DNA of 64,000 nt from Bacteroidales bacterium (GCA_017627955.1 JAGAFU010000028.1:13808-77807), one strand, 5' to 3'. Shown: positions 4,774 through 7,675, numbered from the stretch's first letter. Numbers and translations: made by a program. Notes: generated by a model from the sequence alone, not told the origin.

Positions 4774-5418
4774 TTGACGCTTGAAGAAATACTGAATAGC
4801 CGGGAGGCCAGGGTGGCGAGGCAGCGTGAGCTGCTGGAGGCCAATCCTGGCCTTTCGCTTATTTCTTTGACGGTGCAGCCTCCTGGGCCAGTTAAGAGAA
4901 ATGATGCATCCTTGGTGATCGCGGAGGCTGGAGTGGCGGCTGTTCGTAAGGCTTTCAAAGTTGAATATGAAGAACTTCGGGACTTGGATACTGGTTTTGA
5001 GGGATTCTTCCTTGTGAATATGGATCCCCTCGAGACCAAGCGCCTGACTTGCCGAATCGAAGACACTCATCCCCTCGGTCGCCTCATGGACATTGATGTC
5101 ATCGTCTTGAACGGCATTTCCGATTTATCGGCGGCAAGCGCCACCCCTGTCTCGCTGCGCTTCGCGCCCTATCCGGGTAAATGCTCGCCAGGGGTGGCCT
5201 TGACCGCCGAATGTCAACCTGTCCCCTCCGAATGTCATCCTGAACGAAGTGAAGGATCTGTCCCTCTGCCGATCGGGCGGGAGGAACTCGGACTCGGGCC
5301 GAGAAAGTGCCTTCTTTGCGACCGGCCGGCCAGGGAATGCATGCGGGCTCGGACTCACTCTATCGAAGAGTTGCTTGAAAATATTCAAACTTTGGTCAAT
5401 TCTTATTTAAATTTATAA
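4774..5418 (+). CDS. citX: Apo-citrate lyase phosphoribosyl-dephospho-CoA transferase, carrying an in-frame repeat-derived insertion of about 45-50 aa
   Basis: REARVARQ, PGPVK, GRLMDIDV and RKCLLC...CMRARTH motifs; TTG start directly after citF; extra segment between DIDV and IGRE. Confidence 0.9.
   Translation: MTLEEILNSREARVARQRELLEANPGLSLISLTVQPPGPVKRNDASLVIAEAGVAAVRKAFKVEYEELRDLDTGFEGFFLVNMDPLETKRLTCRIEDTHPLGRLMDIDVIVLNGISDLSAASATPVSLRFAPYPGKCSPGVALTAECQPVPSECHPERSEGSVPLPIGREELGLGPRKCLLCDRPARECMRARTHSIEELLENIQTLVNSYLNL
5128..5210 (+). repeat. Family D long hairpin element inside citX
   Basis: 33-bp core 5151-5183 matches the reverse complement of 61636-61668 at 32/33. Perfect 10-bp stem GCCACCCCTG (5140-5149) / CAGGGGTGGC (5189-5198). 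Outer stem TCGGCGGCAAG / CTTGACCGCCGA. Confidence 0.9.
5233..5259 (+). repeat. Family A 27-bp palindromic repeat inside citX (encodes CHPERSEGS)
   Basis: TGTCATCCTGAACGAAGTGAAGGATCT; related copies at 6056, 11227, 14386 (minus) and 63656. Confidence 0.9.
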
Positions 5419-5426
5419 TAAAACCC

Positions 5427-5456
5427 TTGTAAATCTATAACGATTTATTACATTTG
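5427..5456 (+). promoter_or_regulatory. Bacteroidetes sigma-A-type promoter upstream of citC-citG
   Basis: TTG at 5427-5429, 19-nt spacer, then TACATTTG at 5449-5456 (TAnnTTTG consensus) in an AT-rich gap. Confidence 0.65.
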
Positions 5457-7675
5457 TGGTGTTGTTCCACAGCAGGCGGAACCGGGTGTATTGGAAAGCT
5501 TGCAAAGAGGTGCAAACAGAAGGAAACATAACTGACATTCAACAAATCCCAATGGGATCTCCTCGCTTCAGGAGGCAAGTCGAGACTTTTCTTTCGGCTA
5601 ACGCTCTCCGTCTGGAGTCCGTTGAGGATTATTTTTGTATCCTTCGGGAGGATGGCTCCATCGCGGCTGGGGCCGGTCTGTCTGGCGATCTCATCAAATG
5701 TGTTGCGGTTGATTCTGCCGAGAGATCAAGGGGGCTTCTTGCTCCGCTTCTATCTCATGTGATCGCATACGCTTCCGGGAAGGGTATTCCCAATCTCAAA
5801 GTATTCACGAAACCGGAGAACGAGGCTGTCTTCACAAGCCTTGGTTTCCACACGATCGCTCGCGCGCCTCAGGCGATCCTTCTTGAGAACGGCCATGGCC
5901 TCGAGGGCTATCTCGCCTCTTTTGATGTTGCCAAAATTGCCGTCTCCAAAATTGCCGGCCAGCCGATCGAGCCCGGCCGCGTCCATTCTCGCGACGCTTC
6001 GCTCGCTGCGGCTGAGTACGGCCTAAGCTCGACGGCTGTTCCGGCTGGTGTGACTTGTCATCCTGAGTGCGGCGAAGGATCTGTTGGCGTGATAATCATG
6101 AACGCCAATCCGTTCACTCTGGGGCATAAGTATCTGGTGGAGAAAGCCTCGGGGCAGGTGGACAAGCTGTTTGTGATTCCAGTCAAGGAGGACTTGTCGT
6201 TGTTCCCATATTCAGAAAGGCTTGAGATGATCAGGTCTGGCTGCGAGGGTTTGGCGACCGTTCTGGACGGCTCTGACTATCAGATTTCGGCCGCGACTTT
6301 CCCGACATATTTCCTTAAAGATCTTTCTGAAGCCTCTGAAACCCAGATGCTTCTGGATCTTGATCTCTTTGGCCGCCGGATCGCTCCCGCTCTTGGAGCG
6401 ACAGTCCGTTTTGTCGGCTCTGAGCCTACTGATCCTCTTACGGCCCGTTATAACGAGCTGATGAAGGAAGTCCTTCCGACCTTCGGCATCTCTGTCGTTG
6501 AGATTCCGAGACTGGAGTTCTCTGAGGTTGCCGTCGGGCTTAGGCCGCACTCAGCCGCAGCGGAGCGAGAATGGACGCGGCCGGGCTCGGGCGGCAACCT
6601 CGCTGTCCCGAAGAAGGCGACTGCTGTGGCAATCCGAGCTTCGGATGTGCGCGAGGCCCTGAAAGAAGGCAACTTCCGCACGGCCGCTGCCCTGACGCCC
6701 CCTTCGACCTGGCCATATTTGGTCGCCGAGCTGATGGCGAGGGCTCTCAGGATGGAGCTCGACACTCCTCTCAAGCCGGGACTTGTTGACAGGGATAGCA
6801 ACGGTGCCCACTCCGACATGGACTACACCCTCATGAGCGGAAGCATCGAAGTGATCCGCCGCTCCTTCATCCGACACCTGCCAATGCTTTTGCGCCAGAG
6901 GTCCTCCGGCGTTAAGGAGTGGAAATTAGTAGTTGAGTTCGGGAAGGCGATAGAGGCGGATGTCATGGAATATACCGGGGGAGTGAACACCTACCGCGGT
7001 GCGATCTTCGCCCTTGGTCTCGCCGCCCTCGCTCATTTTTCCGTGATTTGTAATTTATTTAATATCAATCATTCACAAGATAGCCTTCCTATCGAAAGTA
7101 GGGGAAGGCTTGTTGATAAACATCTGGAGGATAGGCAGTTGGAAATCACGGCGGCTATTTCATGCCTGGCTGAAGCTATTACTCCTACAGAGGATTCCCA
7201 TGGGGGAAAGGCTGTGAGCGAGCATGGCGTGACAGGTGCCTTGCGGATGGCTCAGGAAGGCTACAAGCCGCTGTTTGAGGATTGGCTGCCGTTTTATCGT
7301 TGCTCTGAGTCGGCCGCTGGTGCTGCCGGGCTTAGGCCGTACTCAGCCGCAGCGAGCGAAGCGAAGCGAGAATGGACGCGGCCGGGCCCGGACAGCACCG
7401 CGGCCCTTCGACTTCGCTCAGGGACCACTGCGGCTGAGCCTCTTCAGAAAACGCTGCTGAAGATAATGTCAACCTTGGACGACACCTGCGTTATCCATAG
7501 GGTTGGATACGAACGAGCCCAGGAAGTGAAGAACGAGGCGGAAGCTCTGTTGGATAATTTCAGCGAAGAAGGATTGAGAGAAATGAAAAAGCGCTACGAT
7601 GCGGAAGGGATCTCCCCTGGAGGAGCCGCCGACATGCTGGCGCTCACCATACTGATAGATTCATTAACTAATTAA
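5456..7675 (+). CDS. citC/citG: Fused [citrate lyase] ligase CitC and triphosphoribosyl-dephospho-CoA synthase CitG, with four in-frame insertions; true start probably downstream of 5456
   Basis: CitC motifs IKCVAV, MNANPFTLGH, SAATFPTYF and RFVGSEP, followed by CitG motifs PKPGLVD...NGAHSDMD, NTYRGAIF, DDTCVIHR and ISPGGAADMLA in one uninterrupted frame. Confidence 0.9.
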   Translation: MVLFHSRRNRVYWKACKEVQTEGNITDIQQIPMGSPRFRRQVETFLSANALRLESVEDYFCILREDGSIAAGAGLSGDLIKCVAVDSAERSRGLLAPLLSHVIAYASGKGIPNLKVFTKPENEAVFTSLGFHTIARAPQAILLENGHGLEGYLASFDVAKIAVSKIAGQPIEPGRVHSRDASLAAAEYGLSSTAVPAGVTCHPECGEGSVGVIIMNANPFTLGHKYLVEKASGQVDKLFVIPVKEDLSLFPYSERLEMIRSGCEGLATVLDGSDYQISAATFPTYFLKDLSEASETQMLLDLDLFGRRIAPALGATVRFVGSEPTDPLTARYNELMKEVLPTFGISVVEIPRLEFSEVAVGLRPHSAAAEREWTRPGSGGNLAVPKKATAVAIRASDVREALKEGNFRTAAALTPPSTWPYLVAELMARALRMELDTPLKPGLVDRDSNGAHSDMDYTLMSGSIEVIRRSFIRHLPMLLRQRSSGVKEWKLVVEFGKAIEADVMEYTGGVNTYRGAIFALGLAALAHFSVICNLFNINHSQDSLPIESRGRLVDKHLEDRQLEITAAISCLAEAITPTEDSHGGKAVSEHGVTGALRMAQEGYKPLFEDWLPFYRCSESAAGAAGLRPYSAAASEAKREWTRPGPDSTAALRLRSGTTAAEPLQKTLLKIMSTLDDTCVIHRVGYERAQEVKNEAEALLDNFSEEGLREMKKRYDAEGISPGGAADMLALTILIDSLTN
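5954..6045 (-). repeat. Family C long hairpin element, copy 1 (reverse orientation), inside the CitC region
   Basis: 69-bp core 5968-6036 is the reverse complement of 7322-7390 at 63/69. Flanking stem GCCGG-C-CAGCCG-A-TCGAGC / GCTCGA-CGGCTG-TT-CCGGC. Confidence 0.9.
6056..6082 (+). repeat. Family A repeat inside the CitC region (encodes CHPECGEGS)
   Basis: TGTCATCCTGAGTGCGGCGAAGGATCT; same reading frame as the citX copy. Confidence 0.85.
6525..6600 (+). repeat. Family C long hairpin element, copy 2, inside the CitC region
   Basis: 60-bp core 6530-6589, 9 nt shorter than copies 1 and 3. Closing stem AGGTTGCCG / CGGCAACCT. Encodes GLRPHSAAAEREWTRPG. Confidence 0.9.
7043..7110. other. AT-rich imperfect palindrome plus terminator-like hairpin, read through in frame within the CitG region
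   Basis: GTGATTTG...CAATCATTCAC followed by AGCCTTCC-N13-GGAAGGCT (7082-7110); sharp drop in GC relative to flanking codons. Confidence 0.55.
7312..7405 (+). repeat. Family C long hairpin element, copy 3, inside the CitG region
   Basis: 69-bp core 7322-7390. Closing stem GGCCGC-T-GGTGCTG-CCGGGC / GCCCGG-A-CAGCACC-GCGGCC. Encodes GLRPYSAAASEAKREWTRPG. Confidence 0.9.
7402..7426 (-). repeat. Family B short palindromic repeat abutting family C copy 3
   Basis: GGCCCTTCGACTTCGCTCAGGGACC. Its reverse complement GGTCCCTGAGCGAAGTCGAAGGGCC resembles 59868-59891 and shares CCTGAGC...CGAAGG with family A. Confidence 0.8.

Follow-up and report, generated by a model that had tools for sequence, protein, structure and literature searches.

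The gene for a holo-ACP synthase (citX) and the adjacent GNAT-citC-citG fusion gene of a Bacteroidales bacterium carry in-frame inserts that belong, with high probability, to hairpin-forming, non-coding DNA repeats of four or more related families, similar to the Rickettsia palindromic elements (RPE) and spread through the genome and its rumen relatives. Both genes lie in the window, a stretch of 64,000 nucleotides that was analysed as a whole, and its features are listed below; S1 to S5 denote the extra segments of the two proteins in order. No description of in-frame palindromic repeats in Bacteroidales genes was found in the searchable literature.

4774-5418, + strand, citX (holo-ACP synthase), host gene 1; Pfam CitX, E = 2e-44
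5113-5259, + strand, insert S1 in CitX, residues 114-162; reads LNGISDLSAASATPVSLRFAPYPGKCSPGVALTAECQPVPSECHPERSEGS
5128-5210, + strand, long hairpin with invariant tip, CTCGCTGCGCTTCGCGCCCTATCCGGGTAAATGCTCG (family D of the first-pass annotation), in S1
5204-5224, + strand, 21-nt tandem half-unit (repeated left arm of the short hairpin), in S1; direct repeat with 21-nt spacing
5232-5259, + strand, short GTCAT hairpin, TGTCATCCTGAACGAAGTGAAGGATCT (family A of the first-pass annotation), reads CHPERSEGS, in S1
5456-7675, + strand, GNAT-citC-citG fusion, host gene 2; Pfam Citrate_ly_lig and CitG, weak N-terminal GNAT match
5917-6053, + strand, insert S2a, reads SFDVAKIAVSKIAGQPIEPGRVHSRDASLAAAEYGLSSTAVPAGVT; long hairpin C (5954-6045) and linker
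6054-6082, + strand, short GTCAT hairpin (CHPECGEGS), in S2
6516-6637, + strand, insert S3, reads ...VAVGLRPHSAAAEREWTRPGSGGNL...; long hairpin C in the opposite orientation (6524-6601)
7040-7135, + strand, segment S4, AT-rich variable CitG loop with no repeat element
7312-7405, + strand, insert S5a, long hairpin C, GAAGLRPYSAAASEAKREWTRPGPDSTA
7398-7440, - strand, short GGTCCC hairpin (family B of the first-pass annotation), gene-strand reading PFDFAQGPLRLS, in S5
11208-11255, + strand, short GTCAT hairpin with duplicated left arm, at a gene end
14384-14415, - strand, short GTCAT hairpin, intergenic
59865-59890, + strand, GGTCCC-type hairpin variant (PVPELVEGP) in argC; Pfam Semialdhyde_dh match on either side
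61626-61686, - strand, long tip hairpin, APGRTFTRIGREAQGAQAP, in argD
63653-63684, + strand, short GTCAT hairpin

Orthologs of CitX are 151 to 238 aa long and those of the fusion, the database proteins of which begin at the ATG at 5552, 553 to 876 aa. Alignments with 14 of the former and 17 of the latter placed the extra segments at approximately 5113-5259, 5917-6082, 6516-6637, 7040-7135 and 7300-7440. Each is flanked by conserved blocks, and the reading frame is open across citX and the fusion with all segments included, in agreement with the first-pass annotation, which had reported five additional segments lying between conserved motifs and leaving the frame intact. The Pfam CitX match is broken into two stretches by S1, which is missing in distant CitX orthologs; likewise, the segments of the fusion are all missing in distant orthologs of 556-593 aa. 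In the AlphaFold model of CitX, S1 is coil with pLDDT <50 between strands 106-113 and 163-166, and the core has pLDDT >95. S1 is thus predicted to form a disordered surface loop, as would be expected from the earlier suggestion that the elements enter tolerant loops.

The segments differ in composition and in their distribution among strains. Within S1, the long tip hairpin has inverted arms at 5128-5149 and 5189-5210, and 0, 1 or 2 extra copies of the 21-nt half-unit are present depending on the strain (insertion after 5203). S2a is not present in most relatives and is replaced by 8 nt in a strain approximately 98% identical (run X5), a net difference of 129 nt or 43 codons; the GTCAT hairpin that follows it (6054-6082) is common to most close relatives at the same site. 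S3 is present in run X7, and 29 nt are found instead in runs X5 and X13 (net 93 nt, 31 codons); relatives have half copies, other elements or an empty site at this position. Over a length of 69 nt, S5a and the S2 copy are 91% complementary; in relatives S5a is followed by one to five tandem 24-nt units (DQTPDSTA), and the GGTCCC hairpin at 7398-7440 varies in presence among relatives. S4 is of another kind: it matches only itself in the genome (blastn-short), has a GC content of approximately 46% and is not palindromic, and a similarly sized segment of different sequence occupies its position in close relatives. The earlier attribution of four of the five segments to hairpin repeats was therefore upheld.

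These four repeat segments have 33, 17, 16 and 36 genomic matches (blastn-short), and nhmmer gave family sizes of 24, 146 and 12 copies in the genome. All four are hairpin-forming, the long ones with folding energies of -24 to -33 kcal/mol (DNA parameters); across the families, the long hairpins fold at -21 to -33 kcal/mol. All families share a core of the GCGAAGC mini-hairpin type. The GTCAT hairpin, with the consensus TGTCATYCTGAGCGAAGCGAAGRATCT, is oriented, carrying GTCAT as its 5' tag and GRATC at the 3' end, and its stem is broken by a GA/GA internal loop and the GCGAAGC mini-hairpin; the genome holds 95 exact-pattern copies (146 by nhmmer), and an exact 25-mer of it was found across many phyla. 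Of the 55 anchor copies of the GGTCCC hairpin, 47 are within genes. The long tip hairpin has 22-24 genomic copies, with covariation at 21 of 21 stem pairs; the tips of the long hairpins are invariant, and their stems differ yet remain perfectly paired.

Elsewhere in the window, related elements had been noted in frame in argC (59677-60669) and argD (60672-61907), and both were recovered, at 59865-59890 and 61626-61686, respectively. ArgD has 411 aa here vs 373 aa in most Bacteroidota, and the site in the closest relative retains the arms only, in flipped orientation. A k-mer scan of the remainder of the window detected no multi-copy element except the GTCAT hairpins at 11208-11255, 14384-14415 and 63653-63684.

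A search of the whole genome with the repeat cores, one of the checks proposed at the outset, returned many copies, mostly inside genes. The repeat intervals number 279, and 159 of them are embedded deep in 111 of the 2099 called genes (~5%), fractions that are approximate because the genes were called with a home-made hexamer model. The hosts include the essential genes dnaG, metG and ftsA besides argC and argD, and Pfam domains were found on either side of the insert in all 10 host proteins tested, among them DnaG, MetRS, FtsA, ArgD, a GH2 enzyme, DsbD and an ABC-F protein. The inserts of MetRS, DnaG and FtsA lie between or beyond Pfam domains, consistent with location in linkers. Within genes, the GTCAT hairpin is confined to the four of its frames that lack stops; the GGTCCC hairpin occurs in five. 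The period of the tandem half-units is divisible by three in 23 of 24 arrays located in genes vs 10 of 40 outside (Fisher P = 1.3e-8), and inside genes no copy or length variant persists that would close the frame or introduce a stop. The segments are probably translated, as this filter on frame and stops, with its triplet periods, implies. Metatranscriptome contigs traverse S2 with the insert retained and no skipping joint, demonstrating that copies are transcribed together with their host genes, albeit in few low-depth contigs from libraries of a type that can contain DNA.

Turnover of the elements is apparent among strains and relatives. At the insert positions, close relatives and strains approximately 98% identical differ in which element is present, in its orientation or in the number of units, always by multiples of three, including those of 129, 93 and 21 nt among strains of the species. 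Three pairs of filled and empty sites (+99, +102 and +123 nt) have clean junctions and flanks approximately 99% identical, reflecting insertion or excision, and no target-site duplication was seen in any of the three. "Empty" alleles keep one arm, as does partial deletion; loci also change by flipping, and an allele swap by recombination was recognized from a 3' flank that is 100% identical and 30 nt of diverged 5' flank. The same few spots have been refilled repeatedly by different families and orientations, and the S1 and S5 copies are conserved across species (L001 and L007). The first-pass annotation had postulated a mobile family and had named sharing of the segments by orthologs as an objection to it; distant orthologs are empty, close relatives hold different elements, and the differences between strains of one species demonstrate mobility or turnover. 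Much of the variation involves partial deletion, slippage of tandem half-units and recombinational exchange of alleles, besides fresh insertion.

The genome is a MAG of 60 contigs, and assembler contigs break at the repeats. On this ground the inserts might be artefacts, and they might otherwise be confined to pseudogenes or removed at the RNA level before translation, a reading that is scarcely credible and has been largely refuted by the junctions, open frames, triplet filter and RNA contigs. Every junction between unique and repeat DNA is covered by contigs from four runs representing three or more independent studies, identical proteins recur in several independent assemblies, essential genes are affected with every frame open, the RNA contigs retain the insert, and the multiple-of-three periods inside genes imply translation. 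With the inserts confirmed in independent assemblies, it may be asked whether selection maintains them as modules with a function, for example as adaptive linkers, as peptides that bind or as mRNA hairpins with a regulatory role. The repeated filling of the same loops in many lineages, the cross-species conservation of S1 and S5, and a bias of short hairpins to the sense strand (58 of 82, P = 2e-4) would be in keeping with this; nevertheless, it is very improbable given that the same element DNA, read in 4-5 frames and both orientations, yields unrelated peptides, that presence differs between strains of one species, that unit numbers vary freely and that disorder is predicted for the insert of CitX. 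As elements are read in all open frames, no particular peptide appears to be selected, and the insert peptides most likely just add length to loops, as neutral passengers.

As to how the families spread, copies would move via single-stranded DNA, in which hairpins fold; the same spots are refilled, and gain and loss of half-units, deletion to one arm, flipping and allele exchange keep the loci changing. The leading candidate for a helper of the short GTCAT family, on a weak link and somewhat short of an even chance, is a small, putatively Ssn-like GIY-YIG nuclease encoded at C3:804-1109. This ORF of 101 aa (PF01541 at 63 bits) is bracketed by GTCAT hairpins: upstream (700-790) there is one that bears four left-arm units, and downstream (1084-1205) there are three. 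Its nearest solved (PDB) relatives are UPF0213 proteins (E ~1e-6), and the protein had no NCBIfam match. The nearest homolog also adjoins a hairpin, and hairpins of the GTCAT type do not flank more distant homologs. In an order-wide sample, a GIY-YIG homolog was present in 12 of 12 hairpin-positive vs 52 of 139 hairpin-negative genomes (P = 1.8e-5). Among close hairpin-bearing relatives (5-86 cores) it was detected in 1 of 13 at E <= 1e-8, a scarcity that is not conclusive because all are fragmented MAGs. Rather doubtful is a broader proposal in which the long hairpins would be a new type of element, with nothing but the ~37-nt tip conserved and copied, the stem being made or re-matched locally by fold-back copying of adjacent sequence or in-hairpin correction, and every round of insertion and excision leaving a one-arm footprint; together with a hairpin-specific GIY-YIG single-strand nuclease, they would constitute a general engine extending and reshuffling loops and linkers in ~5% of the proteome. 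If this were true, such an engine could be at work in bacteria at large, given that the GTCAT hairpin is identical across many phyla.

Copying between loci could also proceed with neither nuclease nor transposase, by template switching or fold-back synthesis at stalled forks followed by slippage, a possible account albeit on the unlikely side. It would accommodate the tandem half-unit arrays that adjoin complete hairpins and vary in number among strains, the clean junctions devoid of target-site duplications, the invariant tips with differing but perfectly paired stems, and the hairpin-rich relatives, most of which show no GIY-YIG gene; however, it leaves unexplained the exact 25-mer in many phyla, the order-wide co-occurrence of hairpins with GIY-YIG genes and the bracketing of the latter. 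Mobilization as REP-like elements by a RAYT or an IS200-type Y1 tyrosine transposase is improbable. Seven open frames match Pfam Y1_Tnp and have HUH-like motifs, and one matches NCBIfam REP_Tyr_transpos with two GGTCCC hairpins approximately 250 nt upstream, but the matches score low (Pfam, 17-31 bits; NCBIfam, 36.6 bits where the cut-off is 80), five of the seven frames have no repeat nearby, the repeat consensuses lack a GTAG or CGTC tag, and REPs are mainly extragenic.

Whichever means of spread applies, the reading of the inserts as hairpin repeat copies places RPE-like in-frame palindromes on a larger scale, in approximately 111 genes including dnaG, metG and ftsA of a gut anaerobe that is free-living and the strains of which still differ by gains and losses. 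It offers a tractable natural system for the entry of new loop and linker sequence into proteins and its tolerance by enzymes. The recently described Ssn/SRM pairs of hairpin and nuclease may thereby acquire a biological role, or at least a consequence for the genome. In practice, the hairpins break short-read assemblies, distort the lengths and alignments of orthologs, and inflate "hypothetical" peptide motifs in metagenomes (VILSEAKDL, RSLSGAEGP, GSTPLTNR, etc.).

In-frame "selfish" palindromes have been treated as peculiar to Rickettsia and a few other reduced genomes. As with RPE (Ogata et al., 2000; summarised in PMC10969869 and PMC3733652), the palindromic repeats described here lie in frame in many unrelated and apparently functional genes, add loop-like segments, comprise several families (four multi-copy palindromic families of 12 to ~146 copies, with frames open in 111 host genes) and have both intragenic and intergenic copies. 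Unlike RPE, their host is a free-living rumen Bacteroidales rather than an obligate intracellular alphaproteobacterium, the units measure 27-95 nt vs ~150 nt and are often composites of a long and a short hairpin with tandem half-units, and a family gives not one conserved peptide but readings in 4-5 frames and both orientations; the likeness is one of functional class. The elements share with MITEs their small size, lack of autonomy, multiple copies and capacity to generate in-frame fusions; unlike in MITEs, the whole element is one hairpin, not two terminal repeats around a spacer, and the three filled/empty pairs are without target-site duplication. REP/BIME repeats are also short palindromes thought to be active as single-stranded hairpins, Y1-type genes as in REP/RAYT systems are present in this genome, and some REPs lie in genes, as in Xanthomonas and Stenotrophomonas (Di Nocera et al., 2013; PMC3733652). 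However, the long families here are mostly intragenic, and the GTAG or CGTC tetranucleotide that by definition tags the end of a REP palindrome (PMC3733652) is missing from the consensuses of all families. From the NTS (CGTCATTCCCGCGMAVGCGGGAATCYRG; PMC11893778) and other SRM, the GTCAT hairpin differs in its interrupted stem and in failing the published degenerate pattern HGTCWYN(0-2)YYVSBRHN(0-5)WNVSBRGN(0-2)RNCYNB, as do the family consensuses (the genome gives 32 matches vs 27 for a reversed control); approximately 37% of its copies are in genes vs a reported 2% in N. meningitidis (PMC11893778), and most close relatives have no detectable GIY-YIG gene. Nevertheless, it is likewise an oriented hairpin of 20-50 nt with a conserved 5' GTCAY flank and approximately 100 copies, copies of it stand both upstream and downstream of a small GIY-YIG gene with a single domain, an arrangement that parallels SRM-ssnA-SRM (Chenal et al., 2025; PMC11893778), and related hairpins occur across phyla.

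The window corresponds to C14:13808-77807 in a genome of 2.58 Mb and 60 contigs, whose relatives are MAGs of uncultured Bacteroidales from the rumen. Pfam searches identified the genes of interest as follows, the N-terminal GNAT match of the third being weak:

3351-4772, CitF
4774-5418, CitX
5456-7675, Citrate_ly_lig + CitG fusion

The gene order is citF, citX, the GNAT-CitC-CitG gene and an aconitase-family gene (7697-9940); the one-protein fusion of GNAT, CitC and CitG occurs throughout this rumen Bacteroidales clade (window 5456-7675, loci L001-L031 of related genomes). Alignment of orthologs delimited five extra segments, ~5113-5259 in CitX (segment 1) and ~5917-6082, 6516-6637, 7040-7135 and 7300-7440 in the fusion (segments 2-5), each flanked by conserved blocks, as the first-pass annotation had proposed from the motifs on either side. 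Segments 1, 2, 3 and 5 are inverted repeats that fold as DNA hairpins and have many further matches across the genome, and the sole genomic match of segment 4 is itself, which agrees with the proposal that four of the five are built from repeats. The claim that the inserts never break the frame also held, the reading frames being open through those of both CitX and the fusion. Segment 4 is a CitG loop of ~32 aa, AT-rich, variable and non-repetitive, for which close relatives match in position, not sequence, and which distant orthologs lack. A search of Rfam with 4500-8000 returned no family match.

The hairpins fall into the following families, the letters being those of the first-pass annotation:

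Short GTCAT hairpin (A), TGTCATYCTGAGCGAAGCGAAGRATCT
Short GGTCCC hairpin (B), GGTCCCTGAGCGGAGYCGAAGGGCC
Long hairpin C (C), about 85-95 nt, GCCGGACAGCCGCTCGAGCCCGGCCGCGTCCATYCTCGC...GCGGCTGAGTACGGCCTAAGCTCGACGGCTGCTCCGGC
Long tip hairpin (D), about 85 nt, variable stems round the tip CTCSCTGCGCTTCGCGCCCTATCCGGGWAAATGSTCG
Fifth repeat family, ~110 nt, core ACCCATGCCACCCTCGGCACTGTAAGAGGGGGGACCGGAGCG...GCGAGCGGTGGGGCC, e.g. at C47:1438-1530, C34:12906-12989 and C41:35309-35392 (contigs of the same genome, outside the window)

Common to all families is a GCGAAGC-type mini-hairpin, a DNA triloop hairpin of unusual stability. The 37-nt tip of the tip hairpin is almost invariant and its stems vary between copies with pairing kept; two-sided changes were observed at all 21 pairs, and doubly changed cells numbered 122, as against 54 +/- 5 after shuffling and 32-60 when the partners were slid. 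Simple decay does not account for this pattern of invariant tip and variable stems. Some copies have whole stems in common, and hence complete hairpins are also copied. A short hairpin in the same orientation lies 41-58 nt downstream of 5 of the 22 tip hairpins; in segment 2, the short hairpin evidently predates the long one. The fifth family has variable outer stems and 16-24 copies, both intragenic and intergenic, and in relatives it occupies a CitG loop, where it is read as ...TATLGMLRGGTGAERSEAS....

By k-mer census, the genome contains about 279 intervals of repeats, which belong to six families; long repeats were absent. Genes were defined by our own hexamer-based whole-ORF calls (2099 genes), which replaced an earlier coding classifier with 240-nt flanks that was too insensitive (48% of random sites coding). 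With these calls, 159 repeat intervals were found to lie >=60 nt within the bounds of a gene, in 111 genes. Counted by core anchors, and with random sites as the reference, of which 80% fall deep within genes, copies of the individual families were distributed thus:

Copies of each hairpin family inside genes
GTCAT hairpin, 35/95 (37%)
GGTCCC hairpin, 47/55 (85%)
Tip hairpin, 17/22 (77%)
Long hairpin C, 12/12 (100%)

The cores thus have many copies elsewhere in the genome, and depletion from genes is confined to the GTCAT hairpin (P = 7e-20). Pfam domains lie on either side of the insert in each of the ten host proteins tested (primase DnaG, MetRS, FtsA, ArgD, a GH2 enzyme, a U32 peptidase, DsbD, an ABC-F protein, an amidohydrolase and an MFS transporter), and the corresponding genes are not pseudogenes. 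Across the whole genome, intragenic short hairpins are in sense orientation in 58 of 82 cases (binomial P = 2e-4), a bias that might stem from insertion into one strand of single-stranded DNA; a fragmented MAG gives no replication direction to which it could be related.

Of its possible frames, the intragenic GTCAT hairpin occupies just the four that are free of stops (VILSEAKD, CHPERSEGS, ILRSAQND and RSFASLRMT), and the GGTCCC hairpin is found in five; no peptide is preferred and stops are excluded. The period of tandem half-units is a multiple of three in 23 of 24 intragenic arrays, compared with 10 of 40 extragenic arrays, whose periods range over 17-25 nt (Fisher P = 1.3e-8). Since the extragenic periods are mostly non-triplet, the generating process is not triplet-based, and non-triplet arrays are purged from genes by reading-frame selection. 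We infer that the inserts would be translated as disordered loops, for which ...SLRFAPYPGK..., ...EREWTRPGSGGNL... and ...CHPERSEGS... are candidate junction-spanning peptides. CitX was modelled with AlphaFold2 from 100 sequences (mean pLDDT 84.6); pLDDT exceeds 95 in the core, and residues 114-162 are predicted as a low-confidence unstructured loop between two strands. The model thereby places the CitX insert in a loop, in keeping with the suggestion that the elements enter tolerant loops.

The concern that the inserts might be assembly artefacts is ruled against by contigs from runs of at least three independent studies that cover every unique/repeat boundary; the insert stretch can be found in publicly available runs of at least eight studies, and insert-bearing proteins recur identically in several independent assemblies. 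In two runs, metatranscriptome contigs cover 5486-5992 and 5963-6117 and traverse both hairpins of segment 2, long and short, to enter the CitC domain; the insert is transcribed with its host gene, as far as low-depth contigs, with DNA carry-over possible, can show. Removal at the RNA level, whether intein-like, intron-like or by another form of excision, was rejected, since these low-depth contigs of two runs contained no skipping joint across segment 2 and the triplet filter favours translation.

None of the five segments is present in the distant orthologs (556-593 aa), and among close relatives each site is differently filled, so that the segments are not shared across orthologs. Fillings of the CitX loop are:

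Tip hairpin + GTCAT hairpin, window, L001 and L007
Long hairpin C, L002-L004
Long hairpin C, reversed
Tip hairpin, reversed, L008 and L020
Empty

The CitC-CitG sites vary likewise, with 1-5 tandem 24-nt units in segment 5, and the MetRS linker and ArgD behave in the same way. Strains of the same species, with flanking DNA ~98% identical, also differ: the long hairpin of segment 2 is missing in one (8 nt in place of 137 nt, net 129 nt), segment 3 is missing in two and present in a third (29 nt in place of 122 nt, net 93 nt), and one has an additional 21-nt half-unit after 5203, such half-units numbering 0, 1 or 2 across CitX alleles in the database. In one CitX allele of the same species, long hairpin C takes the place of the tip and GTCAT hairpins; on the 3' side the allele's flank shows 100% identity for about 180 nt, and its 30-nt 5' flank is diverged, resembling other species, which indicates a cassette exchange by recombination. 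Such presence and absence within a species, together with the varied fillings, support the mobile behaviour originally suggested, and turnover continues. Some relatives carry a further insert of 40-70 aa in CitG after ...FIRHLPM (alignment columns 688-750), e.g. DYCLQSGSEEYRHSDASLRSAPPLASQSEAPVPP...; this loop, empty in the window, marks another hot spot. At C41:20517-21602 (L203:1007-2091), ~1.1 kb is present here vs 9 nt (GTAGATTAT) in contigs of three other strains. Strain contigs across the 20-kb repeat-rich region of C41 yielded few extra empty sites and stop at repeats.

Three pairs of filled and empty alleles differ by +99, +102 and +123 nt between flanks about 99% identical, with clean junctions, no target-site duplication and essentially no junction microhomology. 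In all three, the arm adjoining the unchanged flank persists in the "empty" allele. Insertion might copy the opposite arm from local sequence or, alternatively, the "empty" allele might be the one-arm footprint of an excision. Distant lineages have the tip hairpin at the same site, L007 and L002 carry half copies, some MetRS alleles retain the canonical left arm alone, and the copy in the nearest argD relative is flipped and consists of arms only. Such alleles show that one-arm footprints also arise by deletion, and for that reason the three pairs cannot be polarised; an attempt to demonstrate that new copies build their stems from the target flank failed on the same grounds. Copies may arise by a single-stranded DNA route, with a putative helper enzyme.

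The searchable literature contained no description of comparable elements in Bacteroidales, consistent with the first-pass annotation, and string searches found no published mention of the insert peptides or the DNA core. In behaviour, the nearest class is that of the Rickettsia palindromic elements, RPEs (PMC10969869), and an RPE-like system in Bacteroidales, as initially proposed, is supported by the observed repeat families, in-frame location, empty sites, within-species polymorphism and frame filter. A second comparison is with Ssn proteins, small GIY-YIG single-strand nucleases that cut beside oriented NTS/SRM hairpins (Chenal et al., 2025, PMC11893778); these hairpins bracket their own Ssn gene and exist in hundreds of copies, seldom intragenic (2% in N. 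meningitidis) (PMC11893778). The genome encodes one small GIY-YIG ORF (C3:804-1109), preceded by a GTCAT hairpin with four tandem left-arm units and followed by three GTCAT hairpins, which thus bracket it as SRMs bracket ssn genes; its nearest homolog (59% identity) also has the GTCAT hairpin 110 nt downstream. In an order-wide sample, a homolog was found in 12/12 hairpin-positive vs 52/139 hairpin-negative genomes (P = 1.8e-5). It was not seen in 12 of 13 close hairpin-bearing relatives, which are fragmented MAGs from which a repeat-flanked gene may be lost in assembly, and the GTCAT hairpin does not match the published degenerate SRM pattern. Among the matches listed for the exact 25-mer GTCATCCTGAGCGAAGCGAAGGATC were MAGs of more than ten phyla (loci L081-L160), including Acidobacteriota, Chloroflexota, Nitrospirota, Verrucomicrobiota, Patescibacteria, Bacillota and others, with matches in the family Lachnospiraceae too; at some loci it forms head-to-head pairs. 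The genome also contains a multi-copy family of seven weak Y1-transposase-like ORFs (IS200/RAYT-like, HUH; 138-302 aa), most without repeat association, among them:

C45:153-1037
C8:46102-46773
C49:6540-7445
C14:82691-83581

The description that probably fits the elements best is that of hairpin repeats belonging or close to the Ssn/SRM kind, with a candidate nuclease; in this lineage they have spread extensively into coding sequence.
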